Source: a virus
IMG/VR virus record: IMGVR_UViG_3300043411_001575
Location: 96,001-160,000 of that record
DNA length: 64,000 nucleotides
Reading direction: 5' to 3' (one strand)
Of the stretch, positions 3,298-20,572 are shown piece after piece. Each line of letters opens with the position of its first letter. The first letter of the stretch is position 1. A program made the position numbers and the translations under genes. The notes under the pieces are model-generated. The model saw only the letters and a program-made list of their open reading frames with translations, did not search any database and was not told the origin of the DNA.

Positions 3298-3305
3298 ATT
3301 GTACA

Positions 3306-4308: not shown

Positions 4309-4318
4309 CAATTACACA

Positions 4319-4415: not shown

Positions 4416-4489
4416 TAAGCTGGCTGCGGTTTATTAAACGAAAAGCTAAATACGAAGCACTAAAGAAAAGAATTTAAAAAAAGGAAGGG

Positions 4490-5308: not shown

Positions 5309-5319
5309 CAGCTTGCTTA

Positions 5320-5445
5320 TAACGGTTTCGGGCTTGGCGAAGAAGCGGACTTATACCACTAAAGTTGATACGAAGAACCAATGTTGATGCTACTACAAAT
5401 GTTCATACGAAGCACTAAACCCGCTTTTTTGCCAATACTTTGTTA
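5320..5445. repeat. attC-like hairpin H7 (near-identical to H11)
   Basis: TTGGCGAAGAAGCGG / CCGCTTTTTTGCCAA. Confidence 0.85.
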
Positions 5446-5527
5446 TGCGTTCGCCTTATTTTTTCGTGTTGATTTTCAGCAAGTTAGAAACTATTTTAAA
5501 AATAAATCAAAAATACTTTGAAAAAAG

Positions 5528-5558
5528 TTTGCAGTTATCAAAATAGGTTGTATATTTG
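5528..5558 (+). promoter_or_regulatory. Bacteroidota-type promoter in cassette 8
   Basis: TTTG-N19-TATATTTG. Confidence 0.7.
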
Positions 5559-5587
5559 TACCAGATAACAATTAAAAAATAAACAAA

Positions 5588-5737
5588 ATGACAACAGCAA
5601 CAGTAAAATCAGAAGCAAAATGGAAAACACAATTTCAAATAATGTGGAATAACACACCAAAGAAATTAAGAAGAACCATCTCACAAGTAAACAACATTAA
5701 ATCACAAGCAAAATTATACGCAGCATTATGGATGTAA
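5588..5737 (+). CDS. small hypothetical protein (49 aa), cassette 8
   Basis: ATG at the position equivalent to 8218 in sister cassette 12. Confidence 0.6.
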   Translation: MTTATVKSEAKWKTQFQIMWNNTPKKLRRTISQVNNIKSQAKLYAALWM

Positions 5738-5949
5738 CAGCAAAAATGGAGCAGGGCAATATAAAAGCCCTGTTCCCCAACTTAGGAATGGAAGTAATTA
5801 CAAATGGCTGTGTTTGCCAAATTATTCAAATCTCATCTCAACAAATCAAAGTCGAAATAACCGAAGCAATAAACCCGATGTATAAAGTTGGAAATCAAAT
5901 TTGGGTTGATAGCTTTTTAATACCATCCGATGAAAAAGAAAAAAACTAA
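5728..5949 (+). CDS. hypothetical protein, cassette 8
   Basis: ORF overlapping both neighbours. Confidence 0.6.
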   Translation: MDVTAKMEQGNIKALFPNLGMEVITNGCVCQIIQISSQQIKVEITEAINPMYKVGNQIWVDSFLIPSDEKEKN

Positions 5950-6097
5950 TAGAGGTGGAGTTCGGGATGGGGCTGGTAGAAAAAAAGCAGACTACGAAAC
6001 AAAAACTATTTCCTTTCGTGTTCGTCTTGAATTTGTAGAACCGATTAAAAAGATGGTCAAGGATTATGTTTCGGAGCGTCTTAAAGGTGACGCATAA
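5930..6097 (+). CDS. small RHH-like DNA-binding protein (55 aa), cassette 8
   Basis: RGGVRDGAGRKKADYETKTISFRVRLEFVEPIKKMV; stop codon is the TAA of TAAC. Confidence 0.75.
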   Translation: MKKKKTNRGGVRDGAGRKKADYETKTISFRVRLEFVEPIKKMVKDYVSERLKGDA

Positions 6098-6214
6098 CGT
6101 TCGAGGGCTTGGCGAAGTGGCTGAACCTGAAGCTAAATAGAATTACTAAACTTAAAAATTAAGAACGAATGATTGATAGAATTACTGAACAGCCATTTTG
6201 CCAAACCCGTGTTA
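6095..6214. repeat. attC-like hairpin H8, contains the start codon of the next gene
   Basis: TTGGCGAAGTGGCTG / CAGCCATTTTGCCAA; same family as H17, H18, H25. Confidence 0.9.
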
Positions 6215-6939
6215 GTGGCAGTACTTTTGTGAATGCTGATTGCTTTGATGTTTTTCCTTTTATCGAGGATAAATCAATTGATGCTATTATTGCCGATTTG
6301 CCTTATGGAACTACTCAAAATAAATGGGATAGTATTTTGCCACTTAATAAACTTTGGAAAGAATACAAGCGGATTTTAAAAGATAGTGGTTGTGTTGTTC
6401 TTTTTGCTCAAACTCCATTTGACAAAGTACTTGGTTGTTCAAATTTAGATTGGTTAAAATACGAATGGATTTGGGATAAAAAACTTGGAAGTGGTTCTTT
6501 GAATGTAAAAAAAATGCCTTTAAAAAGACACGAAAATATATTAGTATTTAGCAAAGGGAAAACCACATATAATCCACAAATGACAAAAGGTAAATTTAGA
6601 AATAAAAGTACAAGTAAGCCATCATCTAATAAAGGTAATTACGGAGAAATAACACACCAAAAAGATAATTTTAATGATGATTATTATCCAACCACTATTT
6701 TAGAATTTACTAATGCAAATGTAAGAGCAAGGGTTCATCCAACTGAAAAACAATTATCTCTTATGGAATACCTTGTAAAAACATACACAAACGAAGGCGA
6801 TACAGTTTTAGATAATACAATGGGTTCAGGAACAACAAACTTGGCTTGTATCAAATTAAATCGCAAATCAATTGGAATTGAAAAGGAAAAACAATATTAC
6901 GATGTCGCTGTTCGGAGGGCTTCGGAGTATTGCCACTAA
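6169..6939 (+). CDS. DNA methyltransferase, beta class, cassette 9
   Basis: DLPY, HPTEK, DNTMGSGTT. Confidence 0.9.
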   Translation: MIDRITEQPFCQTRVSGSTFVNADCFDVFPFIEDKSIDAIIADLPYGTTQNKWDSILPLNKLWKEYKRILKDSGCVVLFAQTPFDKVLGCSNLDWLKYEWIWDKKLGSGSLNVKKMPLKRHENILVFSKGKTTYNPQMTKGKFRNKSTSKPSSNKGNYGEITHQKDNFNDDYYPTTILEFTNANVRARVHPTEKQLSLMEYLVKTYTNEGDTVLDNTMGSGTTNLACIKLNRKSIGIEKEKQYYDVAVRRASEYCH

Positions 6940-7024
6940 CGTTTTGCGTATATGAGAAGTGGCACTTGCACAAACTTGAAATTTAGCACAAATGTTTCTG
7001 TGCCATTTCTTATATACGCTGTTA
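6937..7024. repeat. attC-like hairpin H9
   Basis: identical to 3306-3393. Confidence 0.9.
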
Positions 7025-7121
7025 TGCCCTCGTTGCGGTAATTTTAGAACTAACTTCAATCGAAGCACTAAGGCATTTTTATTCTTTTTGTGGGAGGGTT
7101 GAAAACTTTTTTAAAATAACA

Positions 7122-7152
7122 CTTGCTAATTAGCAAAATATAGTTACTTTTG
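7122..7152 (+). promoter_or_regulatory. Bacteroidota-type promoter in cassette 10
   Basis: CTTG-N19-TACTTTTG. Confidence 0.6.
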
Positions 7153-7188
7153 TAACGCAATAATGCAGAAAACTAAAATTTAAAAACA

Positions 7189-7419
7189 ATGTCAAAAGCA
7201 GTTTATCAATTATTATTTGCTAATCAATCTGCCGATTCAAAGGTGCGATATGAATTAGTTAGAGAAACAAAAATGTATGTTTTTTTAAGAGAAATCACAA
7301 AAGAACCTCAATACATTTTTAGAGTTCACAAAAAAACATTAAGCGTTAAGGGTATCAAGGAAGGTAAAAATGGTTATCAATTTGACGTGGCTGACGCAAG
7401 AATTTTAAAAAAAGTATAA
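7189..7419 (+). CDS. hypothetical protein, cassette 10
   Basis: ORF after promoter. Confidence 0.7.
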   Translation: MSKAVYQLLFANQSADSKVRYELVRETKMYVFLREITKEPQYIFRVHKKTLSVKGIKEGKNGYQFDVADARILKKV

Positions 7420-7421
7420 CT

Positions 7422-7607
7422 ATGCGACTATCTGTAACAGAATACGCAAAACAGCTTGGTGTAACTCGTCAAGCTGTTTTGTTACAGATTAAAGAAAAAA
7501 GGTTGCCTAATAATGTTAAGTCTGAAAAAATTGGCAACACTTACTCTTTAACTGTGGGTGGGCAAAAAAAGAATAAAAATGCTTCCAATAAACTACAATC
7601 GAAGTAG
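7422..7607 (+). CDS. small HTH DNA-binding protein, cassette 10
   Basis: LSVTEYAKQLGVTRQAVLLQIK helix-turn-helix pattern. Confidence 0.75.
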   Translation: MRLSVTEYAKQLGVTRQAVLLQIKEKRLPNNVKSEKIGNTYSLTVGGQKKNKNASNKLQSK

Positions 7608-7625
7608 TATCGTAGCAATGGGGCA

Positions 7626-7715
7626 TAACGGTTGAGTGTATGAGTAGTGTGGCTTTGTACATACTCTCGACTTACAGATAAATTTATTTAGCCACATTAC
7701 TTATACACTTTGTTA
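7626..7715. repeat. attC-like hairpin H10
   Basis: AGTGTATGAGTAGTGTGGCT / AGCCACATTACTTATACACT. Confidence 0.88.
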
Positions 7716-7738
7716 TAGGTATGTAAAATTTACGGATT

Positions 7739-7933
7739 ATGAAACAGAAATATGTAAGATGCTTAGATAAGTTTGAAGTAGAATTAAAAGAAGGTGATAT
7801 TGTTGATGTTCAAATGGATGGTGAACATGAAATATATAAGAAAGAAGGTGGACAACTCTACTTCAAACCTTATGGAAAAGAAGATATGGTAAGTGCTTAC
7901 TTCTCAAATGATATGATTAAGGTAGAACGGTAG
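7739..7933 (+). CDS. small hypothetical protein with YopX-like motif, cassette 11
   Basis: LDKFEVELKEGDIV resembles the YopX D-K-x-G-x-E-I-Y-E-G-D-I motif. Confidence 0.6.
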   Translation: MKQKYVRCLDKFEVELKEGDIVDVQMDGEHEIYKKEGGQLYFKPYGKEDMVSAYFSNDMIKVER

Positions 7934-7949
7934 TAAATTTTATTACCTA

Positions 7950-8074
7950 TAACGGACGAGTATTGGCGAAGAAGCGGACTTTTACCACTAAAGTTGATAC
8001 GAAGAACTAATGTTGATGTTACTACAAACGTTCATACGAAGCACTAAAACCGCTTTTTTGCCAATACTTTGTTA
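7950..8074. repeat. attC-like hairpin H11
   Basis: AGTATTGGCGAAGAAGCGG / CCGCTTTTTTGCCAATACT. Confidence 0.88.
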
Positions 8075-8156
8075 TGCGTTCGCCTTATTTTTTCGTGTTG
8101 ATTTTCAGTAAGTTAGAAAATATTTTGAAAATAAATCCAAAATACTTTGAAAAAAG

Positions 8157-8187
8157 TTTGCAGTTATCAAAATAGGTTGTATATTTG
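8157..8187 (+). promoter_or_regulatory. Bacteroidota-type promoter in cassette 12
   Basis: TTTG-N19-TATATTTG, same as cassette 8. Confidence 0.7.
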
Positions 8188-8217
8188 TACTCAGATAACA
8201 ATTAAAAAATAAACAAA

Positions 8218-8463
8218 ATGAGAACATTGATTTTAGAAGCAAACGTAATTGAAACTAAAAACAGTTACACAATAGACACTACTATTGAAAAAGAATGGGG
8301 AATGAAAAAACCTATAATGAAAAAAATTCTTTACGGGATAGAAATTCAAAAGCCAACTGCATATAGAATTTATAATCATGGAAACGGTTCTTCAAGAACT
8401 TGGGTGTTTGGTGATTTGGAAATAAACCCAGATAGTAGAAGTGTTAAAAAATTGGCAAAGTGA
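8218..8463 (+). CDS. hypothetical protein, cassette 12
   Basis: ORF after promoter. Confidence 0.7.
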   Translation: MRTLILEANVIETKNSYTIDTTIEKEWGMKKPIMKKILYGIEIQKPTAYRIYNHGNGSSRTWVFGDLEINPDSRSVKKLAK

Positions 8464-8627
8464 AAAAGAAAAAAGAAACGAGAGGGGGCAAACGCTCCTT
8501 CTCTGGTCGCAGAAAAGCATCATACGAAACTAAAACTATTTCCTTTAGAGTTCGTATTGAATTTGTCGAACCGATTAAAAAGATGGTTAAGGATTATGTT
8601 TCGGAGCGTCTTAAAGGTGACGCATAA
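8460..8627 (+). CDS. small RHH-like DNA-binding protein (55 aa, GTG start), cassette 12
   Basis: C-terminal half nearly identical to 5930-6097; GTGA overlap with the upstream stop. Confidence 0.7.
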   Translation: MKKKKETRGGKRSFSGRRKASYETKTISFRVRIEFVEPIKKMVKDYVSERLKGDA

Positions 8628-8713
8628 CGTTTTGCGTGTATGAGCAGTGGCACTTATACAACGCTTGAATTTGACCACAAAACTTCCTGTGCCATTGCTT
8701 ATACACGCTGTTA
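8625..8713. repeat. attC-like hairpin H12
   Basis: GCGTGTATGAGCAGTGGCAC / GTGCCATTGCTTATACACGC. Confidence 0.9.
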
Positions 8714-8750
8714 GCAGTAGTACGGATTATTAACGAATAAATTAAATAGA

Positions 8751-9545
8751 ATGAGTAATAAAATAGATTTAGATAAATATTATACACCATTGGATAAAGC
8801 TAAATATTGTATTGACAAGGTGTATGAAATTATCGGAGAGAATAATATAAGCGAAGCTATTGAACCAAGCGCAGGTAACGGTAGTTTTAGCTTACAAGTG
8901 CCGACTACTTGTTGGGCTTATGATATTGAACCTGAACACGAAAGTATTATAAAGCAAGATTTCTTGACGTTGGATGTTGATTATCTTTATGGTAGGTTAA
9001 TAATTGGAAACCCACCATTCGGCAGTAGAATGAATTTAGCACAAAAATTTTTCAAAAAAAGTATTGAATTAGGTGACTATGTTGCATTTATATTACCAAT
9101 TAGTCAATTGTGGAATACTAACAGTTTATTTGAATTTGATTTGATTCATAGTGAAGATTTAGGTAAAGTAAAATATAGTGATAGAGATTTACATTGTTGC
9201 TTTAACATTTATAAAAGACCTGAAATTGGATTGAATAACAGACCAAAAAACAAACTAAACTCTGTTAGTATAACAAGACAGGATAGCAAAGGATATGATA
9301 CTATCAATGATTTTGATATAAGAATGTGTTATTGGGGAAATGGGAGTGCTGGAAAAATACTAAAAGAAGGTGAAACTTATAGTGCGGAATACAAGATAAA
9401 AGTAAATGATGAATTTAGAAAAGACGTAATAGATGTTCTTTCTAATATTAATTGGTTTGATGAACTGAATTGTATTGCTATGTTAAAAATTCAACAATTT
9501 CACATAATCAATGTACTGAAAAAGTATGTGCCAAACATTGATTAA
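8751..9545 (+). CDS. N6-adenine DNA methyltransferase, gamma class, cassette 13
   Basis: YYTP, motif I EPSAGNGSF before motif IV GNPPFG. Confidence 0.88.
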   Translation: MSNKIDLDKYYTPLDKAKYCIDKVYEIIGENNISEAIEPSAGNGSFSLQVPTTCWAYDIEPEHESIIKQDFLTLDVDYLYGRLIIGNPPFGSRMNLAQKFFKKSIELGDYVAFILPISQLWNTNSLFEFDLIHSEDLGKVKYSDRDLHCCFNIYKRPEIGLNNRPKNKLNSVSITRQDSKGYDTINDFDIRMCYWGNGSAGKILKEGETYSAEYKIKVNDEFRKDVIDVLSNINWFDELNCIAMLKIQQFHIINVLKKYVPNID

Positions 9546-9568
9546 TAGCACTAACGTAGTATTACTGC

Positions 9569-9693
9569 TAACGGTTACGGCTTTGTGCAGTGTGGGAAAT
9601 TGAAAAACAAAATTTGAATTATGCAGAAAAGTTTATTTGAAAACGAAATGTTGAATATAGTACAAAAGCCCACATTGCACAAAGCCGATGTTA
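9569..9693. repeat. attC-like hairpin H13, contains the start codon of the next gene
   Basis: CGGCTTTGTGCAGTGTGGG / CCCACATTGCACAAAGCCG. Confidence 0.9.
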
Positions 9694-10424
9694 GCCGCAG
9701 TACATTCTATCAGGGTGATTGTCTTGTGGAAATGGATAAGATTTCCGATAAAAGTGTGGATATGATTTTATGTGATTTGCCTTATGGAACAACAGCTTGC
9801 AAATGGGATAGTGTCATTCCTTTTGAGCCACTTTGGAAGCAATATGAAAGGATTATAAAAGATAACGGGGCAATAGTTTTGACAGCTTCGCAACCATTTA
9901 CAACAATATTAATAAGCAGCAATATAAAGTTATTCAGGTATGAATTAATTTGGCAAAAGGATAAGGCAAGTGGGTTTTTAAATGCTAATAAAATACCATT
10001 GAAAGCACACGAAAACGTTTTAGTATTTTACAAAAAGTTACCTACATATAATCCGCAAAAAACCATTGGTGGGCTGCAAAGGAAAAGGACAAGGAAAAAA
10101 CCAACGCATGAGGTTTTAGGTAAAACTGGTGTAAATGAAAAACACGTTATTTGGCAAGATAACACAAGATACCCTATAAGTGTTTTAGAATTTGATGTAG
10201 ATACTATTAACCACAGTTTGCACCCTACTCAAAAACCAATAGCATTAATGGAATATTTAATAAAAACCTACACCAACGAAGGAGAAACAGTTTTAGATAA
10301 CTGTATGGGTTCAGGAACAACTGGTGTGGCTTGTAAAAAAACAGGTAGGCACTTTATCGGAATAGAAAAGGATGAAAAGTATTTTGAAATTGCCGTTAGC
10401 AGGGTGTCTGCGTATTGCGGCTAA
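9621..10424 (+). CDS. DNA methyltransferase, beta class, cassette 14
   Basis: GDCL, DLPY, HPTQKP, DNCMGSGTT. Confidence 0.9.
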   Translation: MQKSLFENEMLNIVQKPTLHKADVSRSTFYQGDCLVEMDKISDKSVDMILCDLPYGTTACKWDSVIPFEPLWKQYERIIKDNGAIVLTASQPFTTILISSNIKLFRYELIWQKDKASGFLNANKIPLKAHENVLVFYKKLPTYNPQKTIGGLQRKRTRKKPTHEVLGKTGVNEKHVIWQDNTRYPISVLEFDVDTINHSLHPTQKPIALMEYLIKTYTNEGETVLDNCMGSGTTGVACKKTGRHFIGIEKDEKYFEIAVSRVSAYCG

Positions 10425-10536
10425 CGTTTTGCAGATAGGCGTTGTTGCCTCACAAATGATTGATTGAAACACTAAATTTAATAATATGGGAAATGATAAT
10501 TTAAAAACGGAAAGCAATAACGCCAATGTGCTGTTA
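10422..10536. repeat. attC-like hairpin H14, contains the start codon of the next gene
   Basis: GGCGTTGTTGC / GCAATAACGCC. Confidence 0.8.
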
Positions 10537-10827
10537 GGTGCTGGGTTTGTTTACTTGGTAGAATGTTCATCAGGAAGTTGGGATAGTTACCATTGGTGGG
10601 TTGGAGGAATATTTGAAAAGCAAGAAGATGCTGATAAATATGCACAAAGCTTGAATGATGAAAACAAACGATTAAAAGAGGTTGAATGCTCAATAAAAAC
10701 ACCATTTGAAGATATGACTGATGAAGAAGAAACGGAGTATTACAGGTGGTGGAATGGTAACAATGATGCTATGGAATGGAATGGTGCTAAAGTTAAGCAG
10801 TACCCCATAAACAAACCTTGCACCTAA
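10486..10827 (+). CDS. hypothetical protein, cassette 15
   Basis: ORF fills the cassette; stop codon in TAAC. Confidence 0.75.
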   Translation: MGNDNLKTESNNANVLLGAGFVYLVECSSGSWDSYHWWVGGIFEKQEDADKYAQSLNDENKRLKEVECSIKTPFEDMTDEEETEYYRWWNGNNDAMEWNGAKVKQYPINKPCT

Positions 10828-10912
10828 CGATTGGGTGTATGAGAAGGTTTGCTTAGATGAACTTTTAAATTTACACAGAATTTTATAGCAAACTTTCTTA
10901 TACACCTTGTTA
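10825..10912. repeat. attC-like hairpin H15
   Basis: GGTGTATGAGAAGGTTTGCT / AGCAAACTTTCTTATACACC. Confidence 0.88.
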
Positions 10913-10975
10913 TGTACAGGCACGGTAAATTACCGATGAACTTAATTAAATGAACGAAACTAATAATTTTTAAAA

Positions 10976-11716
10976 ATGTGGGATGGCAAATATGCTTTTG
11001 AAAAAAGCAAAATAATACAAGGAGATAGTTTGGATAAAATAAAATATATACCTAATGGCAGTATTGACTTAATTGTAACTGACCCACCGTATAAAATGAC
11101 GAAACAAGGTAATTCTTGCAGACCAAATTATATGAAAAGTGGAATGGGTGAAAACTTATTTGATGGTGAATTACCAAATACAAAAGAATGGATGAAACTT
11201 TGTTTTGATAAACTAAAAGACGATGCCCATTTCTATGTATTTACCAATATAAATAGTTTGCACGAATACCTTGATGTTGCAAAAGAATGTGGATTTAAAC
11301 TACATAATATTATAAGTATGATTAAAGATACCAAAATGCCTAATAGATGGTATTTAAAATACACTGAATTTGTATTGTTTTTTAGAAAAGGTAAAGCGTT
11401 TCCAATAAACGATATGACAAGTAGAGATTATGAATTTGTTGAAACACCAACATTAAAAAATGGCAAAATACATATATCACAAAAACCATTGAATTTTATT
11501 GAAAAACTAATAACAAATTCATCAAATGAAGGTGAAATATGTTTGGATTTATTTAGTGGAAGCGGAACACTTGCAGAAGCCTGTATAAATACAAATAGAG
11601 ATTTCATTATTATAGAGAAAAACCCAAATGACTTTGAAAAAGGCAAAGAAAGGGTGGGAAAAATTTTTAAAAATTATGGAATTAACATACAACCTTTAAT
11701 CGAAGCACAAATGTAG
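10976..11716 (+). CDS. DNA methyltransferase, beta class, cassette 16
   Basis: TDPPY, HISQKP, DLFSGSGT. Confidence 0.92.
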   Translation: MWDGKYAFEKSKIIQGDSLDKIKYIPNGSIDLIVTDPPYKMTKQGNSCRPNYMKSGMGENLFDGELPNTKEWMKLCFDKLKDDAHFYVFTNINSLHEYLDVAKECGFKLHNIISMIKDTKMPNRWYLKYTEFVLFFRKGKAFPINDMTSRDYEFVETPTLKNGKIHISQKPLNFIEKLITNSSNEGEICLDLFSGSGTLAEACINTNRDFIIIEKNPNDFEKGKERVGKIFKNYGINIQPLIEAQM

Positions 11717-11726
11717 TGCTTGTACA

Positions 11727-11813
11727 TAACGTTTTCGGGCTTGGCGAAGGTGGGCTTGTAGGATGCTCAATTTTAGCACAATGTGTCTGCCCACTTTTGC
11801 CAAACCCGTGTTA
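11727..11813. repeat. attC-like hairpin H16
   Basis: TTGGCGAAGGTGGGC / GCCCACTTTTGCCAA. Confidence 0.88.
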
Positions 11814-11910
11814 TATGAAGTGCCGACTTATTAAGCAGAATTTTAAATTGAAACTATAAACAGAAAAACAAAAAAGAAAAAAAGCGTAGGGAATTTTAAA
11901 AACAAACAAT

Positions 11911-12177
11911 ATGGAAAAGAATTTTATTGAAAAAGCAGAAAAAGAAATTGGTAGAAAATTTGGTTTTTTCATCAGATGTGATGATAAAAACAAACCAACA
12001 GAAGTATTAACCGATATGTACTTTGAACTATGGGAAACAGAAAAGATGAACGAGATTTTATCTTTATGCGAAACACATAATCTTAAATACGATTTTGGTT
12101 TAGAAAGTTTTGATACCAAAATAGATGCTATTGAACAAGAAATATGTATTGTTTCAACTAATTGCGAAAATTCATAA
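11911..12177 (+). CDS. hypothetical protein, cassette 17
   Basis: ORF 1 nt upstream of the MTase ATG. Confidence 0.65.
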   Translation: MEKNFIEKAEKEIGRKFGFFIRCDDKNKPTEVLTDMYFELWETEKMNEILSLCETHNLKYDFGLESFDTKIDAIEQEICIVSTNCENS

Positions 12178-12178
12178 A

Positions 12179-12922
12179 ATGGAAGCAAATACGATTTACA
12201 AAGGCGATTGCTTTGAACTTATAAAGCAAATAACAAAAGCAGATAACGTCAAACTTATTATTACAGACCCACCATATTTACATAATAAAGGAGGTGGGAA
12301 AACATCGGGAACAGAGGGTAAAAGTTCAATAGCTAATAGCCCTATGTATAAATTCGATTCATTTATGATGGAAGATATGAGTTCTTTTTTAGAGGAAGAT
12401 GTTTATAATCTATTAGATGAATATAAAAGAATAATGACAAAATTAAACTGCTTTATATTTACTAATGACACTTTGATACCGTATTATACAATGTGGGCAG
12501 TTAAAAACAATAAAAAGTTTACAATTTTAACTTGGGAAAAACCATTGTCGATTTTAAACAGAAATAGATTTAGTCAGAATTTAGAATATGTTGTGAGGAT
12601 TTACGACAATGGAACTGCACTTAATTTAATAGATTTAGAAGCATATCCCGAAAAGAAAAACTACTACTCAAAAAACAGAAGGTTAAATTCGCCTACAAAT
12701 AAGATACACCCAACCCAAAAACCATTAGAATATCTACTTGGATTGATTGAGTTAAATACAAATGAAGGCGATTTAGTATTAGATACGTTTTTTGGTAGTG
12801 GACAAACAGGTAAGGCTTGTCAGATTTTAAATAGAAATTATATCGGTTTTGAAAGAGAAGAAAAGTATGTTGAATTATCAAATAAATATTTACAACAAGG
12901 ATTTGAAAAAACACTATTTTAA
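12179..12922 (+). CDS. DNA methyltransferase, beta class, cassette 17
   Basis: TDPPY, HPTQKP, DTFFGSG. Confidence 0.92.
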   Translation: MEANTIYKGDCFELIKQITKADNVKLIITDPPYLHNKGGGKTSGTEGKSSIANSPMYKFDSFMMEDMSSFLEEDVYNLLDEYKRIMTKLNCFIFTNDTLIPYYTMWAVKNNKKFTILTWEKPLSILNRNRFSQNLEYVVRIYDNGTALNLIDLEAYPEKKNYYSKNRRLNSPTNKIHPTQKPLEYLLGLIELNTNEGDLVLDTFFGSGQTGKACQILNRNYIGFEREEKYVELSNKYLQQGFEKTLF

Positions 12923-12997
12923 AAGTGTGGTGGCTTTTTTCTTTTTGTTTTTCATTAACGGAACTTCAATTGGAAACGGTCAGCAAGGCATTTCATA

Positions 12998-13117
12998 TAA
13001 CGTTCGAGGGCTTGGCGAAGTGGCTGAACCTGAAGCTAAATAGAATTACTAAACTTAAAAATTAAGAACGAATGATTGATATAATTACTGAACAGCCATT
13101 TTGCCAAACCCGTGTTA
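12998..13117. repeat. attC-like hairpin H17, contains start codon
   Basis: near-identical to H8. Confidence 0.9.
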
Positions 13118-13881
13118 GTGGCAGTACTTTTGTGAATGCTGATTGCTTTGATGTTTTTCCTTTTATCGAGGATAAATCAATTGATGCTATTATTTGCGAT
13201 TTGCCCTATGGAACAACTCAATGTAAATGGGATAGCATTATTAATTTAGATTTGATGTGGACGCAATACAACAGAATAATAAAAGATAACGGCATTTTTA
13301 TATTATTTGCAGATGAGCCTTTTACAAGCATATTAATAAATAGTAACATTAAAAATTTTAAGCAAAGAATAACTTGGGATAAACAAATAGCAGGAGGTCA
13401 TTTAAACGCTAAAAAAATGCTATTGAAAAGAACTGAGGATATATGCTTATTTTCAAATGTTAAAAATGGAAAATATACATACAATCCTATTTTAAAAGAT
13501 AAGGATTTTAAAAACATAAGAGATAGAAACGGAGAAAACAGAAAAGAGTTTAAAGGCGGTTATGTAGGGAAACACAATAGTACGTTGAGTAAAGAGCATA
13601 ACAATAAAAAAAGTTACCCAGATAATTTAATTTCCTTTTCAGCAAGAAAAGGCGATTGTAACCCTATAAATAGATTACACCCAACACAAAAACCACTTGA
13701 ATTGATGGAATATCTTATAAAAACCTATACTAATGAGGGCGATTTGGTTTTAGATAACACAATGGGTTCTGGAACAACAATTTTAGCTGCTATAAAAAAT
13801 AATAGAATTGGTATAGGAATTGAAAAGGAAAAACAATATTATGATGTCGCTGTTCGTAGGGCTTCGGAGTATTGCCACTAA
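13072..13881 (+). CDS. DNA methyltransferase, beta class, cassette 18
   Basis: DLPY, HPTQKP, DNTMGSGTT. Confidence 0.9.
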   Translation: MIDIITEQPFCQTRVSGSTFVNADCFDVFPFIEDKSIDAIICDLPYGTTQCKWDSIINLDLMWTQYNRIIKDNGIFILFADEPFTSILINSNIKNFKQRITWDKQIAGGHLNAKKMLLKRTEDICLFSNVKNGKYTYNPILKDKDFKNIRDRNGENRKEFKGGYVGKHNSTLSKEHNNKKSYPDNLISFSARKGDCNPINRLHPTQKPLELMEYLIKTYTNEGDLVLDNTMGSGTTILAAIKNNRIGIGIEKEKQYYDVAVRRASEYCH

Positions 13882-13998
13882 CGTTATCGGGCTTGGCGAA
13901 GTGGCTGAACCCGAAGCTAAATAGAATTACTAAACTTAAAAATTAAAAACGAATGTCAAATAGAATTACAGAACAGCCATTTTGCCAAACCAGTGTTA
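13879..13998. repeat. attC-like hairpin H18, contains start codon
   Basis: H8 family. Confidence 0.9.
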
Positions 13999-14711
13999 GT
14001 GGCAGTACTTTTGTAAATGCTGATTGCTTTGATGTTTTTCCTTTTATTGAGGACAAATCAATTGATGCTATTATTTGCGATTTGCCTTATGGAACTACTG
14101 CTTGTAAGTGGGATACAATTATACCATTTGAGCCGCTATGGGAGCAGTACAAGCGAGTGATTAAACCTAATGGTGCGATAGTGCTGTTTAGCAAAGAGCC
14201 ATTTACGTGCATATTGAGAACAAGTGAAATTAAAATTTTTAAGCAACCTCTTATTTGGGATAAGGTTAATTCAGATAACCCTATGCAGGCAAAAAGAAGA
14301 CATCTAAACACTACGGAGGATATTTCTATCTTTTACAAATCTCAATGTACTTATAACCCACAAGGTCTTATAAAGTCAAATATAAAAAAGGGAGGGAAGC
14401 AAGGGATAATGATTGATAGTAGTGGTAAGGAAAAAGAACAATATATTCAAGAGAATACCAATTATCCGAAAAATATATTAGTGTACCCGATAGAAAGAAA
14501 GGCGGTTCATCCAACTCAAAAACCCGAAGCACTCCTGCAATACTTAGTCAAAACCTACACTAACGAAGGCGATATAGTCTTAGATAACTGTATGGGTTCA
14601 GGTACAACAAATCTTGCTTGTTTAAAATTAAATCGCAAATCAATTGGAATAGAAAAGGAAAAACAATATTACGATGTCGCTGTTCGTAGGGCTTCTGAGT
14701 ATTGCCACTAA
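13953..14711 (+). CDS. DNA methyltransferase, beta class, cassette 19
   Basis: DLPY, HPTQKP, DNCMGSGTT. Confidence 0.9.
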   Translation: MSNRITEQPFCQTSVSGSTFVNADCFDVFPFIEDKSIDAIICDLPYGTTACKWDTIIPFEPLWEQYKRVIKPNGAIVLFSKEPFTCILRTSEIKIFKQPLIWDKVNSDNPMQAKRRHLNTTEDISIFYKSQCTYNPQGLIKSNIKKGGKQGIMIDSSGKEKEQYIQENTNYPKNILVYPIERKAVHPTQKPEALLQYLVKTYTNEGDIVLDNCMGSGTTNLACLKLNRKSIGIEKEKQYYDVAVRRASEYCH

Positions 14712-14765
14712 CGGTATCCGTATAAGGGAAGTGCGAGGAACGAGCATTTACTTTATACGGTGTTA
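14709..14765. repeat. attC-like hairpin H19 (shortest, 57 bp)
   Basis: CCGTATAAGG / CTTTATACGG. Confidence 0.85.
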
Positions 14766-14856
14766 GCAAAGTGCGTTGGGATTGTGTGTCGGCTCGTTCC
14801 AAAACCATTTATTTTCTTTTTTTTGGGGAGGTTTTGAAAACTTTTTTACTAAAATA

Positions 14857-14887
14857 CTTGCTAAATGACAATTTATATTTATCTTTG
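14857..14887 (+). promoter_or_regulatory. Bacteroidota-type promoter in cassette 20
   Basis: CTTG-N19-TATCTTTG. Confidence 0.6.
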
Positions 14888-14918
14888 AACCATATTAATA
14901 ATCTAAAAACAAAACAAA

Positions 14919-15230
14919 ATGATTTACAAAAAAACACACTATGATAAAAAGGCTTTAAACAGCCACGTTTCAAAAATAAAAGATGCAGGAGGAAATGCAA
15001 TAGTAGATGGATTATCGGTTAGATATTTCTATCCATCCAATACCATTGGTGAAATTAGATTAAAGCATAAGAGTTGGAAGAAAACAGAAAGACAAGAAGT
15101 TTTGTTTATTGTTTTAGTTTCTGAAAAAGATAAAACGCCATACTATTCAGCAATGTATTTCCCGAAATGGGTTGAAATAGGAGGTGTTTATGGAAACAAA
15201 AATGACATAACAATAATCGAAAAGTTTTAA
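14919..15230 (+). CDS. hypothetical protein, cassette 20
   Basis: ORF after promoter. Confidence 0.7.
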   Translation: MIYKKTHYDKKALNSHVSKIKDAGGNAIVDGLSVRYFYPSNTIGEIRLKHKSWKKTERQEVLFIVLVSEKDKTPYYSAMYFPKWVEIGGVYGNKNDITIIEKF

Positions 15231-15232
15231 CT

Positions 15233-15388
15233 ATGAAACTGTCTGTAACAGAATATGCAAAACAGCTTGGCGTAACTCGTCAAGCCGTTTTGTTACAAAT
15301 TAAAGAAAAAAGGTTGCCTAAAAATGTGAAGGTTGAAAAAATCGGAAATACTTATTCTTTAACTGTGGGTGGGCAAAAAAGAAAATAA
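15233..15388 (+). CDS. small HTH DNA-binding protein (51 aa, not in ORF track), cassette 20
   Basis: MKLSVTEYAKQLGVTRQAVLLQIKEKRLP, paralog of 7422-7607. Confidence 0.75.
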   Translation: MKLSVTEYAKQLGVTRQAVLLQIKEKRLPKNVKVEKIGNTYSLTVGGQKRK

Positions 15389-15407
15389 ATGGTTTTGGAA
15401 TGTTTGC

Positions 15408-15497
15408 TAACGTATGGTGCTATGAGCAGGTTTGCCTTGCAGAAATGTTCAAATTTAGCACTAATGTTATTGGCAAACTTGCTTATAGCACGTGTTA
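15408..15497. repeat. attC-like hairpin H20
   Basis: GTGCTATGAGCAGGTTTGCC / GGCAAACTTGCTTATAGCAC. Confidence 0.88.
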
Positions 15498-15533
15498 GCG
15501 GTAGTTTATTTTTCAAAAATTAAAATTAAAAAT

Positions 15534-15992
15534 ATGGGAACACAAGTAGTAGGAGAAAGTAACAGCGTTGAGTATAGCACTCCGTTGAAAATAGTACAGC
15601 CATTGATAAACGAATTTGGCTTAACAAGAGATGTTTGTGCAAGTGAATTAAACCACAAACTACCCGATTATTGGACAAAAGAAGATAATTCACTTGCTAT
15701 GAATTGGAAAGGTAATTGTTGGATGAACCCACCATTTAGCAGAGATTTGAATAAGTGGGTAAAGAAAGCGTGTAATGATGCTGAAAGGTTTGGAGGAACG
15801 AAAGTTTGTTTAATACCTGTAAGAAGCAATACAAAATGGTGGGCGGAAGTTTGTGTAAAAGCAGAAATTCGTTTTATCAATGGCGAAGTAAATTTTAATG
15901 ATGAAGAACGTGGACTTTGGTTGCCGATGTGTATTATCATTTTCGGTGAGAAGGCAAAGGTTGGCACGTTCTCTGTCTTAAATTACCGCTAA
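15534..15992 (+). CDS. phage Dam-like N6-adenine methyltransferase, cassette 21
   Basis: YSTP, DVCAS, WMNPPFS, LIPVRSNTKWW, EIRFI. Confidence 0.88.
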   Translation: MGTQVVGESNSVEYSTPLKIVQPLINEFGLTRDVCASELNHKLPDYWTKEDNSLAMNWKGNCWMNPPFSRDLNKWVKKACNDAERFGGTKVCLIPVRSNTKWWAEVCVKAEIRFINGEVNFNDEERGLWLPMCIIIFGEKAKVGTFSVLNYR

Positions 15993-16062
15993 CGTTTTGC
16001 AGCTAACAGAAGGCGGCTTTTTAGCAAACTTAGTACTTGCCGCTTTTTGTTAGCTGCTGTTA
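15990..16062. repeat. attC-like hairpin H21
   Basis: GCAGCTAACAGAAGGCGGC / GCCGCTTTTTGTTAGCTGC. Confidence 0.88.
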
Positions 16063-16120
16063 GTGGACTGTTAAATTATTAAAAAAGAAAAAAGGAGGGG
16101 TGCGAGGGCATCTAAACATA

Positions 16121-16957
16121 ATGGACAAGAAGAAACTTTTAATTGCTTTTAGTGGTGGAGAAACATCTGCATTTATGGCTCAATGGTTATGGAAACATAA
16201 ACAAGGTGAATACGAAATGTTATTTGCTTTTGCTAATACTGGGGTTGAGAATGAAGAAACTTTAAACTTTGTGCATAAATGCGAAGTTGAATTTGGTATA
16301 AATGTTAATTGGTTGGAAGCAGTAATAGACCAAGAGAAAGGGAAAGGCACAAGGCATAAGATTGTTGATTACAAAACAGCAAGTAGAAACGGACAACCAT
16401 TTGAGGAACTGATAAAGAAATACGGTTTACCAAACCAACAGCGATTTCACTGCACAAGGGAGTTAAAAAATAATACATTGATTTCATTTGCAAAAAGTAT
16501 TTGGGGAAAGGAAAAGTATTATTTAGCAATAGGAATTAGAGTAGATGAATTTGATAGGATGAATGATAAATTTAAAGAGTTGAGAATTGTTTATCCGTTA
16601 ATTTCAGAAATTCCAATGACAAAGCCAAAGATTAATTTTTGGTGGAAACAACAACCGTTTAGATTAGAATTAAAAGGTTATCAAGGGAATTGTGTTACTT
16701 GCTACAAAAAAAGTGATAAAAAATTGTTTCAGATAGCTAAAGAAAATCCAAGTGCATTTGATTTCTTTGATAGAATGGAAGAACAATATGGAGAAGGTAA
16801 GTATCAATTTTTTAGGCAGAACCGAACAGCTAAACAAATTATGGAACAAGCTAAAGAATGGAATGGCAATGTAACCGATGACGCACAAAATGTTACAATA
16901 CAAACAGATTTATTTAGCGAAAGTTGTGAAGCATTTACAAGCGATTGCGGTGTTTAA
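16121..16957 (+). CDS. PAPS reductase-like (adenine nucleotide alpha hydrolase fold) protein, cassette 22
   Basis: PP-loop FSGGETSA, FANTG, CTRELK, IGIRVDE, YPL, NCVTC. Confidence 0.85.
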   Translation: MDKKKLLIAFSGGETSAFMAQWLWKHKQGEYEMLFAFANTGVENEETLNFVHKCEVEFGINVNWLEAVIDQEKGKGTRHKIVDYKTASRNGQPFEELIKKYGLPNQQRFHCTRELKNNTLISFAKSIWGKEKYYLAIGIRVDEFDRMNDKFKELRIVYPLISEIPMTKPKINFWWKQQPFRLELKGYQGNCVTCYKKSDKKLFQIAKENPSAFDFFDRMEEQYGEGKYQFFRQNRTAKQIMEQAKEWNGNVTDDAQNVTIQTDLFSESCEAFTSDCGV

Positions 16958-17026
16958 CCTTTTCACAGTTTTGAAAAAACTGAAAGAGTGCGTGGGCTTT
17001 TTCTTTTTTAATAATTTAATTGCCAC

Positions 17027-17152
17027 TAACGGTTCGCAGGTATATTTAGTTGCGGACTTAGTAACACAAAACTTTAAATTTAGAAGAAATGAAGAAAGAA
17101 GAACAAAACTCGAATGAACCACAAAAACCGCAATTGAATATACCTGCTGTTA
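17027..17152. repeat. attC-like hairpin H22, contains start codon
   Basis: GCAGGTATATTTAGTTGCGG / CCGCAATTGAATATACCTGC. Confidence 0.9.
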
Positions 17153-17445
17153 GTTGCAGTGTTGTTCATTGCAAGAAAGCACCTTATGATGTTTATATTG
17201 GAAGACCAAGCAAATGGGGTAATCCATTCACACACATAAAAGACGGTAAAACACTTGCAAAACATATTGTAGGTAGTAGAGATGAAGCAGTCGAAGCATA
17301 TCTTGAATGGATTACCAACGGAGAAGGTAAACATTTGATGAGTGATTTACACGAATTGAAAGATAAGGTGCTTGGTTGTTGGTGTCATCCACAATCTTGT
17401 CACGGAGATGTACTTTCGGAGTTGGTTGCTAAACATTGCAACTAA
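17089..17445 (+). CDS. DUF4326-like protein, cassette 23
   Basis: VYIGRPSKWGNPF..LGCWCHPQSCHGDVL. Confidence 0.85.
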   Translation: MKKEEQNSNEPQKPQLNIPAVSCSVVHCKKAPYDVYIGRPSKWGNPFTHIKDGKTLAKHIVGSRDEAVEAYLEWITNGEGKHLMSDLHELKDKVLGCWCHPQSCHGDVLSELVAKHCN

Positions 17446-17567
17446 CGTTTTGCAGGTATATTTAGTGCCGAATTTAAAAACGAAAAATATGAATTTTATA
17501 CAAAAGTTATTTAAAAGCAGAAAGGTTAATGAACCGATGAACTCGGCATTGAATATACCTGTTGTTA
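17443..17567. repeat. attC-like hairpin H23, contains start codon
   Basis: CAGGTATATTTAGTGCCGA / TCGGCATTGAATATACCTG. Confidence 0.9.
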
Positions 17568-17791
17568 TACCTCGTTTATCTTCTGATTGGATAAAATTTG
17601 AGGATGAAAAACCACCACACGAAGTAGTATTAGCTGCTTGCGATACTTATGATTGTGGATGGACTATGGATACTGTTTGGTGGTATGAAGATAAGCAATG
17701 TTGGATGGTTACTGGTGCAGTTAAAAGTACAGAAGCACATTTACCATACACACATTGGCGTAAATTACCACCATTTCCAAATGAGGTATAA
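17489..17791 (+). CDS. DUF551-like protein, cassette 24
   Basis: WIKFEDEKPP..VLA..THWRKLPPFP. Confidence 0.75.
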   Translation: MNFIQKLFKSRKVNEPMNSALNIPVVIPRLSSDWIKFEDEKPPHEVVLAACDTYDCGWTMDTVWWYEDKQCWMVTGAVKSTEAHLPYTHWRKLPPFPNEV

Positions 17792-17914
17792 CGTATTGGT
17801 GCTATACGAAGGAGGCGATTATTAGCACTAAATTTGATGCGGAGTACAAATGTTTGTTTAACCACAAATGTTTCTGCGGAGTACCAAACCGCCTCTTTTG
17901 TATAGCACGTGTTA
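17789..17914. repeat. attC-like hairpin H24
   Basis: GTGCTATACGAAGGAGGCG / CGCCTCTTTTGTATAGCAC. Confidence 0.88.
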
Positions 17915-17978
17915 TACGCTGGCACGGTTGATTAAACGAGAAACTTAAATTGAAACACAAAACAAAATTTTTATTAAA

Positions 17979-18764
17979 ATGAGCGAGGGCAAAAAAGAAA
18001 TATTATTAGGAGATTGTTTGGAACTTATGAAGGATATACCAAACGGAAGTATTGATATGATACTTTGTGATTTACCATACGGAACAACTGCTTGTAAATG
18101 GGATAGTGTAATACCTTTTGAACCACTTTGGAAAGAATATGAAAGGATTATAAAGACCAATGGTGCTATTTTATTGTTTGGAACACAACCATTCACAACA
18201 GAACTAATATTGAGCAATAGAAAATTGTTTAAGTATGATATGGTTTGGTGCAAAGACAAACCTGCTGACTTCGGAAATGGCAATATAAAACCATTAAGAT
18301 ACCACGAAACAATTTGTGTATTTTATACCAAAACGCCAACATACAATAAGCAATTTGAAAGCAGAAAAGGAACTGGCTATTCAAGGGCTAAATATCCTGT
18401 AAATTACATAAACAATTCAGAGCATAAATTTGGAATGAAAGATGGTTCTTTTGATTATGCAAATAAAGACAGAATGATTGGAACTGTAATAGATATTACA
18501 ACTGGTGCAAGAGGTAGCATAAAACACCCAACAGTAAAGCCCGTTCCTTTATTTGAACATTTAATCAAAACATATACCAACGAAGGTGAATTGGTTTTAG
18601 ATAATACAGCAGGAAGCGGAACAACTGCAATTGCTTGTTTGAATACTAAAAGGCAATTTATAGTAATGGAAAAAGAACAAAAGTATTACGATATGATTTT
18701 AAAAAGGGTGGGAGATTTTAATAAAAATTTTGAACCGCAAACTCTCTTTGGAAACGAAATGTAG
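17979..18764 (+). CDS. DNA methyltransferase, beta class, cassette 25
   Basis: GDCL, DLPY, HPTVKP, DNTAGSGTT. Confidence 0.9.
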   Translation: MSEGKKEILLGDCLELMKDIPNGSIDMILCDLPYGTTACKWDSVIPFEPLWKEYERIIKTNGAILLFGTQPFTTELILSNRKLFKYDMVWCKDKPADFGNGNIKPLRYHETICVFYTKTPTYNKQFESRKGTGYSRAKYPVNYINNSEHKFGMKDGSFDYANKDRMIGTVIDITTGARGSIKHPTVKPVPLFEHLIKTYTNEGELVLDNTAGSGTTAIACLNTKRQFIVMEKEQKYYDMILKRVGDFNKNFEPQTLFGNEM

Positions 18765-18774
18765 TGCTTGCGTA

Positions 18775-18894
18775 TAACGGTATCGGGCTTGGCGAAGTGG
18801 CTGAACCGAATGTTTGATAGAAGCACAAAACTTAATAATTAAAAACGAATGATTGATAGAATTACTGAACAGCCATTTTGCCAAACCCGTGTTA
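18775..18894. repeat. attC-like hairpin H25, contains start codon
   Basis: H8 family stems. Confidence 0.9.
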
Positions 18895-19643
18895 TGTGCA
18901 GGGCGGTTGATAACCTTGAACTCCTTTTGTCGCAACCTGATGAAAGTGTAGATTTGATTTACTGTGATATTCTTTATGGAACGGGTAGGAATTTCGGTGA
19001 TTACCAAGACTTAAAACCAATTAGAAGCGAAATAGAAAGCCACTACCTACCAAGACTTATTGAAATGAAACGAGTTTTAAAAAGTACAGGTAGTATTTAT
19101 TTGCAAATGGATACACGAATAAACCATTGGATGCGCATTTTGATGGATGATGTTTTTGGGTATGAAAATTTCCGCAATGAAATAGTATTTGGATATAATG
19201 GGGGTGGTGTTTCAAAGAATTGTTATCCTAAAAAACACGACATAATCTTGTTTTATTCTGTTAGTGATAAATACTATTTTAATAACGAAAAGAAACCATA
19301 CTCCGCTTTAAGTTCACAAAACTTATTGTGGAAACATAGGAATAAAAAAAGACTTGATGAACTTAATGATGGCACACCTGTAACCGATGTATGGACTGAT
19401 TTGAAGTTTAAAATAAATTACCAAGAGGAAGAATATACAGGATATGCTACCCAAAAAACAAAAGAATTATTGAGCCGTATTGTTTTAGCTTCCACAAATG
19501 AAGGCGATACAGTTGCAGATTATTATTTAGGTAGTGGCACAACGGCAGTAGTTTGTAAGGAACTGAACCGAAATTTTATAGGTTGCGATATTAATCCAAA
19601 AGCTATTGAAATAACAAATGCTCGTTTAGATGCACTTTCGTAG
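18849..19643 (+). CDS. DNA methyltransferase, beta class, cassette 26
   Basis: DLIYCDILY (variant motif IV), FRNEIV, YATQK, DYYLGSGTT. Confidence 0.85.
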   Translation: MIDRITEQPFCQTRVMCRAVDNLELLLSQPDESVDLIYCDILYGTGRNFGDYQDLKPIRSEIESHYLPRLIEMKRVLKSTGSIYLQMDTRINHWMRILMDDVFGYENFRNEIVFGYNGGGVSKNCYPKKHDIILFYSVSDKYYFNNEKKPYSALSSQNLLWKHRNKKRLDELNDGTPVTDVWTDLKFKINYQEEEYTGYATQKTKELLSRIVLASTNEGDTVADYYLGSGTTAVVCKELNRNFIGCDINPKAIEITNARLDALS

Positions 19644-19702
19644 CTTTGCACATAACGTGTATTTAATGGAATGGAGTGTCAAAATCAATTAGTTACATAA
19701 TA
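19640..19702. other. putative attI-like primary recombination site
   Basis: Last TAACG (19653-19657) is followed by the integrase gene instead of a hairpin and TGTTA. Confidence 0.55.
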
Positions 19703-20572
19703 ATGGAAGATAAAATTAACAAATTAAGGAGGGAGTTATCCATAAGGAAATATGCTCCTAATACAGTTGAAACATATTGTTCATGTCTTAAAGTTATTTT
19801 TAGTAAATGTGGAATTAATCCAAGTATTGATTCTTTAAAGTCATATTTATTAACTATTGAAAATAGAAACTACCATAAACAAATAGTCGCTACATTCAGA
19901 AACTACTCTGAATTTGTATTAGGTATTAAATTATCTTTAAACGATGTTCCTTATCCTAGAAAACAAGAAAGTTTGCCTGAAATATATTCAGTTGAAGAGG
20001 TTTCTAAATTAATTAATATTCCTAAAAATTTAAAACATCAATCTATAATTTTTTTATTGTATGGATGTGGACTTAGAGTTAGTGAATTAATTAATTTAAA
20101 ATTAACTGATATAGATAGTGATAGAATGGTTGTTAACATCCGAAAAGCAAAAGGAAATAAGGACAGGCAAATAATGTTGGATGAATCTTTACTTAAATTA
20201 CTTCGTGATTATTACACTGAATATAAACCAATAAATTATTTATTCAATGGTCAAAAAAAAGACCAATATAGTGACAGGTCTGTAAATGAACTTCTTAAAT
20301 ATTGGTCTAAAAAAGCAGGTATAAAAAAACATATTCATGCTCATTTATTAAGGCATTCATTCGCTACCCATCTTTTAGATGCAGGAATAGACATGGCTAT
20401 AATTCAAAAGTTATTAGGTCATTCAAACATAAAAACAACGCAAATTTATGCAAAAATTTCAACCAAATTAATATCTCAAATTAAATCTCCATTATCAAAC
20501 ATTAAAATCAATTCAAATGAAAAATCTAGTAATATTATTCCTTTGTGGAATTCTGATAGGTTTCCAAACTAA
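19703..20572 (+). CDS. tyrosine recombinase (integron-integrase-like, no IntI insertion)
   Basis: N-terminal SAM-like RKYAPNTVETY; catalytic GLRVSE, KGNKDR, HLLRHSFATH, LGHSNIKTTQIY; alternative GTG start at 19676. Confidence 0.93.
   Translation: MEDKINKLRRELSIRKYAPNTVETYCSCLKVIFSKCGINPSIDSLKSYLLTIENRNYHKQIVATFRNYSEFVLGIKLSLNDVPYPRKQESLPEIYSVEEVSKLINIPKNLKHQSIIFLLYGCGLRVSELINLKLTDIDSDRMVVNIRKAKGNKDRQIMLDESLLKLLRDYYTEYKPINYLFNGQKKDQYSDRSVNELLKYWSKKAGIKKHIHAHLLRHSFATHLLDAGIDMAIIQKLLGHSNIKTTQIYAKISTKLISQIKSPLSNIKINSNEKSSNIIPLWNSDRFPN

Follow-up and report, generated by a model that had tools for sequence, protein, structure and literature searches.

A probable array integrase without the IntI insertion, next to a cassette array in a freshwater phage

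We have identified, in a large freshwater phage, a tyrosine recombinase that is likely to be the dedicated integrase of the cassette array ending just upstream of its gene. The gene lies in the window, by which we mean the whole 64,000-nt stretch of DNA that was analysed (positions 96,001 to 160,000 of the IMG/VR virus record IMGVR_UViG_3300043411_001575). The enzyme is predicted to act with a crossover at the AAC box that adjoins a short attI-like platform, and its probable substrate is the folded plus strand. Judged from sequence comparisons, the phage enzyme most likely does the job of an integron integrase without being a member of the IntI family.

Integrase gene and protein

The features of the integrase gene are the following.

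19703..20572, plus strand: integrase gene, encoding a two-domain tyrosine recombinase of 289 aa without an arm-binding domain and without the I2 segment
20075..20449, plus strand: catalytic codons for R125 (20075-20077), K150 (20150-20152), H214 (20342-20344), R217 (20351-20353), H240 (20420-20422) and Y249 (20447-20449)
20231..20260, plus strand: two points at which the protein lacks residues that IntI has, I177/N178 (31 aa) and K185/K186 (11 aa)

The ATG at 19703 and the stop codon ending at 20572 are those of the plus-strand ORF list of the window. An alternative GTG start at 19676 is unlikely, since all close homologues have their start codon where this ATG is and the preceding 46 nt are conserved as non-coding DNA. 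The protein matches the Pfam family Phage_integrase (PF00589, 1.9e-43). In an alignment of 34 homologues the columns of R125, K150, H214, R217, H240 and Y249 are invariant, and a MAFFT alignment places all six on the catalytic residues of IntI and XerD. The full R-K-H-R-H-Y set that a sequence-only reading of this DNA had described in about 290 aa is present, as R125-K150-H214-R217-H240-Y249 in 289 aa.

The integrase gene is the only one with a PF00589 match in the 169,658-bp virus record that holds the window, and the source is a large phage with tRNA operons and no second recombinase in this ∼170-kb record. The ORF downstream of the integrase (253 aa, 20634-21395) has neither a Pfam nor a PHROG match. 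It is not a conserved partner of the enzyme, as none of 165 related loci has a homologue of it.

The segment missing relative to IntI

Aligned by MAFFT with three true IntI proteins, the window protein lacks 42 residues in two parts. The larger part, 31 aa, precedes the YLFNG strand, where IntI has ‘LPDAL-RKYP’, the region of the I2 helix; the smaller, 11 aa, follows the YLFNG strand, where IntI has the hairpin extension ‘STDPRSG-RRH’. The distance from the box I arginine to the box II histidine is 89 aa in the window protein versus 131 in IntI. The same gap is visible with the NCBIfam model of integron integrases, TIGR02249, which aligns over model positions 2-181 and 239-314 only; the match skips 57 model positions (182-238), for which the window protein has 15 residues. 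The earlier proposal that the IntI-specific insertion is absent is thus borne out by both the TIGR02249 gap and the alignment, while its location between the YLFNG and HLLRH motifs has to be corrected for the larger part. Only 11 of the missing residues fall between these motifs and 31 fall on the N-terminal side of YLFNG; from YLFNG (179-183) to HLLRH (214-218) there are 30 residues, compared with ∼41 in the equivalent part of true IntI.

No strong match to an IntI-specific model was found. The protein scored 154.8 bits, in two pieces, on TIGR02249 (cut-off 265) and 107.8 bits on NF011946 (cut-off 435); such a match is what the sequence-only reading had named as evidence against its proposal. 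The true IntI controls, which we found among the related viral loci, scored 468, 453 and 395 bits on TIGR02249 (L085, L086 and L088, respectively). These three genes are located on IMG/VR viral contigs (L085:4047-4997, L086:491-1435 and L088:9989-10972) and have the insertion. The L085 integrase has three chained cassettes upstream; its DNA is GC-rich, and the orientation of its ORFs is hence an uninformative control. The best NCBIfam model for the window protein was that of XerA (NF040815, 206 bits, below the cut-off of 220), on which the array-linked relatives described below scored 146-198 bits. Scores on the XerC and XerD models were 163 bits (TIGR02224, cut-off 335) and 171 bits (TIGR02225, cut-off 330).

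Structure prediction had been suggested along with the earlier proposal. The AlphaFold2 model of the integrase (pLDDT 87.3) has as its closest Foldseek match the integron integrase VchIntIA (2a3v, E 3e-17, TM 0.69), followed by XerA; the Brujita integrase 5vfz is also among the structural matches. We counted the VchIntIA match in favour of the array being served by its own integrase. By sequence, the closest solved structure is that of Pyrococcus abyssi XerA (4a8e, 2.9e-44), and Brujita 5vfz is matched at 8.7e-12.

The missing segment is the one by which integron integrases are recognized. The I2 element has been described as a 20-residue domain that accommodates the extrahelical bases of folded attC and was ‘not identified elsewhere’ (PMC4792948), although the insertion is ‘not fully conserved’ in an integron-like subgroup (Smyshlyaev et al., PMC8138268). 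IntegronFinder calls an IntI only if both PF00589 and the intI_Cterm profile match (PMC4889954). That standard tools would miss the window enzyme, as had been anticipated, follows from this definition, the intI_Cterm profile being exactly the missing region. The IntegronFinder authors did come across recombinases other than IntI close to attC sites, 21 in all, which they regarded as scattered (PMC4889954).

The cassette array and its hairpin sites

The array covers ∼37 kb. It begins ∼18.2 kb upstream of the first nucleotide of the window, at genome position 77,777, and reaches window position 19,656. Its main features in the window are:

1..19656, plus strand: in-window part of the cassette array, with methyltransferase-rich ORFs (at least 47 hairpin sites in the whole array)
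18775..18894, plus strand: last complete hairpin, 120 nt; the last methyltransferase cassette ORF begins within its right arm

The sites, at least 47 in number, have the form RYYYAAC-G-(3-4 nt bulge)-arm...arm-T-GTTRRRY, with the two boxes of each site 50-130 nt apart and joined by a long imperfect stem. In a run of 17 consecutive sites, the last pair of boxes included, each 7-nt right box pairs exactly, as reverse complement, with the left box that comes next. Such chaining of complementary boxes is the classical signature of integron cassettes. The cassette ORFs, many of them encoding DNA methyltransferases, are co-directional with the integrase gene, which we counted in favour of the array having its own integrase. 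Sites at 6088, 12991, 13872 and 18768 that had been taken for ‘half sites’ are complete, their right arms sitting inside the start of the next ORF.

The G.T pair and the bulge of the sites are nearly invariant. A T precedes GTTA in all 47 sites and a G follows TAAC in 43 of them; the 5′ arm has a net excess of 3-4 nt in 40/47. The stems contain 48 G.T pairs versus 23 A.C pairs. The plus strand is the more stable one in 40 of the 47 sites, with mean folding energies (RNA parameters) of −30.5 versus −25.7 kcal/mol; the strand asymmetry is only moderate in energy, and this was counted against a dedicated array integrase. A search of Rfam gave no family for the array hairpins, the sole match being a chance one to an sRNA (E 0.026).

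Repeats within the window show a hairpin together with the start of the following methyltransferase gene duplicated as one piece. A small cassette gene for a helix-turn-helix-like protein (MKLSVTEYAKQLGVTRQAV...) is present twice, at 7392-7578 and 15203-15389 (84% identity); more copies precede the window, around genome positions 89,206 and 93,915. Repeats of another kind occur in the structural region, where a Gly-rich motif of ∼57 nt (…GGTGGTGGAGTTGG… on the coding strand) has nine copies on the minus strand at 57161-63604, inside ORFs of 1656 and 550 aa.

Terminal box, attI-like platform and crossover point

The array ends in a box with no hairpin after it; only 46 nt separate this box from the ATG of the integrase.

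19650..19656, plus strand: terminal box ACATAAC, the exact reverse complement of GTTATGT at 18888-18894 (right box of the last hairpin)
19657..19702, plus strand: attI-like platform, 46 nt; the closest relatives keep TAAC-RTNNATTTAAYRGAATC...AAAATCAATTAGTTACA

Through exact 7-nt complementarity the terminal box is chained to at least 12 upstream cassettes. The larger (main) sub-clade of related phage integrases has another conserved stretch, TAAC-TAYTATATGTA, at the equivalent place; thus, the attI-like sequence is conserved within sub-clades and different between them.

Strain variation falls at this box. A 1793-nt contig from another sample (run X15) is identical to the window over the integrase region and diverges just upstream of 19651; among the Logan contigs most joints fall in repeated methyltransferase sequence, and the evidence used here is this one long identical contig. 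The Polaribacter phage Freya, known from ten isolates with genomes of 44.0-48.9 kb (PMC8776804), provides a comparison within one phage species. Its integrase is 31.5% identical to the window integrase and was placed in our first tree inside the phage clade, on a long branch. Isolates Freya_1 and Freya_10 have in common an ORF ending ...TTTACAAC. In Freya_1 the attI-like stretch and the integrase come immediately after this ORF, whereas Freya_10 has ∼5 kb of DNA with 12 ORFs, ending ...TGCTAAC, between this ORF and the same attI-like stretch. Other Freya isolates have different subsets of cassettes between flanks that are 100% identical, and the Danklef phages have some cassettes in common with Freya at 97% identity.

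The Freya comparison, at the sequence level, puts the exchange in the left box that adjoins the integrase, at its AAC or within it, with cassettes gained and lost there. A crossover at this point means that each cassette consists of a hairpin and the ORF downstream of it, in agreement with both the in-window duplications and the divergence of the 1793-nt contig at 19651. In the classical arrangement (Model A) each hairpin would go with the ORF before it and attI would stand at the left-hand end of the array. This model was rejected because in Freya_1 and Freya_10 the same ORF has different sequence right after its AAC box.

Array linkage among related phages

A protein search gave many homologues of ∼268 aa, nearly all of them unnamed or annotated as XerD. 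We extended the set by 77 loci from viruses and by 80 from GTDB genomes and traced cassettes backward from an AAC box located 24-93 nt before the integrase start, with pseudo-starts as controls; counts for the clade were limited to loci with at least 1.5 kb of upstream DNA. At least three chained cassettes (up to 16) were found directly upstream of the integrase in 30 of the 42 clade loci. Outside the clade the same test was positive for 2 of 69 loci (one in a sister phage group, one a true IntI), and for 2 of the 312 pseudo-start controls. The initial proposal had called the integrase cassette-associated and had named homologues away from TAAC/GTTA arrays as evidence against it; in the clade the association holds at this frequency. 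An earlier scan by minimum free energy only, with a loose count of chains, was noisy, giving chains of 2-4 also in downstream and opposite-strand control scans; two chains of six in these control scans (L110 and L118) are real arrays, which are described below.

In the array-linked clade loci the distance from the terminal box to the start codon is 36-82 nt, mostly 46-52 nt (∼50), and the layout recurs across integrases of 37-79% identity. All array-linked members lack the insertion, with 84-93 aa between the box I arginine and the box II histidine, and all fail TIGR02249. Fewer than three chained cassettes were found in 12/42 clade loci, most of which still have a box ∼50 nt upstream; these short chains were counted against the array being served by the adjoining enzyme. 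Many clade contigs end within a few hundred nucleotides upstream of the integrase, which fits assemblies breaking at repetitive arrays. Six archaeal loci in the set had no chain of three or more beside the integrase.

Hairpins and cassettes are 85-99% identical at the nucleotide level between arrays whose integrases are only 37-46% identical. This points to a common pool of cassettes. In the scan of GTDB genomes, clade members were nearly absent from bacterial genomes: one contig of a Saccharimonadales MAG fell inside the clade and one contig of a Chryseobacterium MAG just outside it.

Sequencing runs related to the window give a view of its distribution. At least half of the sampled words of the stretch 17800-20700 were present in 19 runs from freshwater, groundwater, wastewater and sediment, as well as in six runs with coded organism names; at least part of the stretch was present in 22 runs from 16 studies. 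In two of the four public runs examined the cassettes were covered and the DNA after the integrase was not, an indication that the cassettes circulate in other backbones.

Phylogeny and bacterial relatives

The tree was built with IQ-TREE from 66 sequences (LG+C20+F+G4 by PMSF), only three of them IntI. The phage clade is monophyletic (UFBoot 91/SH-aLRT 91); it joins a small sister phage group (88/82), and the two together join two groups of insertion-less integrases from Bacteroidota chromosomes (85/85). IntI (100/100) is located elsewhere in the tree, weakly beside XerA-like proteins of DPANN archaea (57/17), and XerC/D (100/100) is apart from the phage clade, the Bacteroidota groups and IntI. 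The sequence-only reading had spoken of a distinct clade, and the tree agrees with it in separating the phage clade (91/91) from both IntI and XerC/D. In this tree, with its three IntI sequences, the phage clade is neither nested in IntI nor placed as its sister.

Arrays of the same hairpin family were observed near chromosomal relatives of the integrase, all without the insertion, in a Flavobacterium (L115:10682-12496), an unclassified bacterium (L111, downstream, +838 to +2160), a Lutibacter (L118:7563-14019) and a member of Spirochaetia (L110:4600-10081). The layout is convergent, integrase and array being on opposite strands. In L115 and L110 the array begins 40-50 nt past the stop codon of the integrase; the L111 array is also downstream of the integrase, and in the Lutibacter the array is 1.3 kb away. 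At least nine contigs of the Bacteroidota groups, from genomes or viruses, end <400 nt after the integrase stop (L098, L114, L116, L162, L119, L097, L096, L108 and L083). In other Bacteroidota-group relatives with long downstream sequence an array was not found. A palindrome, TTTTGTATTG...ACGCAATGCGT...CAATACAAAA, is conserved after the integrase stop in L099, L111, L094, L097, L115 and L096; it could be a terminator or a platform site of these relatives.

Proposed mechanism and alternative explanations

If the window enzyme is the integrase of the array, it would bind the double-stranded attI-like site together with the folded single plus strand of a cassette hairpin. Cleavage at the AAC box by Y249 would be followed by exchange of one strand, with the product resolved by replication, as in integrons. 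The choice of strand and a block on cleavage of the second strand could be supplied by the site itself, in place of I2; the candidate features, of the kind suggested in the sequence-only reading, are the one-sided bulge of 3-4 nt and the invariant G.T pair that adjoins the box, which would do the work of I2 for an enzyme without this helix to hold extrahelical bases. The phage would gain a stock of interchangeable small genes, those for DNA methyltransferases included, from a pool common to phages. As I2 has been held necessary for the extrahelical bases (PMC4792948), single-strand recombination without it is a new claim, and we counted this against a dedicated array integrase.

A different mode of action on the same array has to be considered: the enzyme may treat the array as duplex DNA, as Xer does at dif or pdif, with the boxes as half-sites and exchange of two strands. 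We regard this as unlikely. The boxes, 50-130 nt apart on a long imperfect stem, do not have the geometry of a duplex core site; the arms vary in sequence while their pairing is kept; and the invariant G.T, the one-sided bulge and the better folding of the plus strand in 40/47 sites matter only when the strand is folded. Moreover, IntI1, a user of folded strands, recombined a hairpin of the same family from phage P12002L (PMC9892861). On the other side, the closest relationship by sequence is to XerA (4a8e, 2.9e-44; NF040815, 206 bits), the segment for extrahelical bases is missing, and integron integrases themselves keep an ancestral activity on duplexes (PMC4792948).

It is also conceivable that the enzyme has no part in moving the cassettes. 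It could be an ordinary lysogeny integrase of the simple, Xer-like Brujita kind that is merely located beside cassettes moved by another enzyme: simple tyrosine recombinases without arm-binding domains, that of Brujita for example, integrate phages (PMC8138268), Brujita 5vfz is among the structural matches, and the authors describing Freya, Danklef and Leef took the integrases as a sign of a possible temperate life (PMC8776804). However, several observations make a lysogeny function quite improbable. Clade integrases with as little as 37% identity keep the spacing between terminal box and start codon, and it is precisely at the terminal box that strains differ. The clade is nearly absent from bacterial genomes in the GTDB scan (one Saccharimonadales MAG contig inside), and the 170-kb phage record, which has tRNA operons, encodes no recombinase besides this one. 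We give still less credence to a role in Xer-like resolution of phage genome multimers, in which case host enzymes would shuffle the cassettes, or else similar hairpins would recombine homologously. Homologous recombination accounts neither for the exact 7-nt complementarity of cassette ends nor for the clean AAC junctions beside a conserved platform that is not repeated, and the protein is outside the XerC/D clade (100/100), even though it does resemble the Xer family and the array has repeated hairpins and methyltransferase genes that could recombine homologously.

A dedicated array integrase thus remains the reading that we prefer, and it has a bearing on how integrons are recognized. Both the study of integrons and the programs that look for them depend on a single marker, an integrase with the I2 insertion, which is held necessary for folded attC; here a coherent clade of insertion-less integrases goes together with arrays that have the classical cassette signature. 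Should these enzymes be active, integron-type gene capture can do without the insertion, surveys of integrons count too few such systems in phages and Bacteroidota, and at least some attC clusters called integrase-less have an integrase nearby. The phages would be using an integron-like device to keep a supply of DNA methyltransferases, in line with a rapid adaptation to the restriction systems of their hosts. A laboratory system for study is available in the Polaribacter-Freya phages, which are in culture and vary in their cassettes at the terminal box.

More tentatively, and with greater doubt than confidence, one may suggest that recombination of hairpin cassettes is an older and wider trait of the XerA/IntI-like branch, in which several insertion-less lineages run integron-like arrays. 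These lineages might comprise the phage clade, Bacteroidota (L115, L111, L118), the spirochaete L110 and possibly DPANN XerA-like proteins. Should this be true, many ‘integrase-less’ CALINs have an unrecognised integrase, and phages trade cassettes via a common pool.

Comparison with known systems

A search of the literature gave no description of the insertion-less phage integrase clade or of its link to arrays. The window system resembles those of IntI (IntI1, VchIntIA 2a3v) in having a tyrosine recombinase beside a platform and cassettes bounded by RYYYAAC...GTTRRRY imperfect hairpins, with complementary cassette ends and the same order of array, platform and integrase on the integrase-sense strand. 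The window protein itself is IntI-like in its N-terminal half and in its C-terminal SPL motif. In contrast to IntI, the phage enzyme is without the 42-residue segment including I2, fails TIGR02249 and NF011946, and is outside the IntI clade. The phage cassette ORFs point toward the integrase and lie downstream of their own hairpins, the reverse of the classical layout; the platform is only ∼46 nt long and the element is carried by a phage. The sites differ as well, those of the phage having a one-sided bulge of 3-4 nt and a fixed G.T pair, whereas attC sites of IntI have two extrahelical bases and an unpaired central spacer.

With the archaeal XerA proteins (P. abyssi 4a8e, T. acidophilum 5hxy) the window protein has in common a short two-domain build with no insertion. 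XerA, though, resolves chromosome dimers at dif, while the phage enzyme adjoins a cassette array, scores below the cut-off of NF040815 and groups in the tree with Bacteroidota-linked integrases. The Brujita integrase (5vfz) is likewise a small phage tyrosine recombinase with no arm-binding domain; it inserts the whole phage at attB, unlike the window enzyme, which is tied to a cassette array. In the pdif modules of Acinetobacter plasmids, genes bounded by inverted sites are moved by an Xer-type enzyme. The pdif sites are 28-bp duplex sites for the host XerC/XerD, not long hairpins chained by 7-nt boxes, and the modules are without a dedicated adjoining integrase, unlike the phage array.

A further known case is that of the attC clusters lacking integrases (CALINs) in virulent phages, among them P12002L of Polaribacter, one hairpin of which was recombined by IntI1 (Qi et al. 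2023, PMC9892861). In the P12002L genome (L170, NC_028924) we observed chained hairpins around methyltransferase genes at ∼29,000-39,900 on the minus strand, and a tblastn search of this genome gave no integrase homologue. On this sequence evidence P12002L is a genuine integrase-less cluster. Cassettes can thus persist without a recombinase encoded alongside, which we counted against the array being served by its own integrase. The P12002L CALIN and the window array have the same hairpin family (YAAC-G-bulge...T-GTTR), methyltransferase genes and a flavobacterial phage host. Unlike the P12002L cluster, the window array and at least 30 related phage contigs end at an integrase gene that would escape an IntI-specific search.
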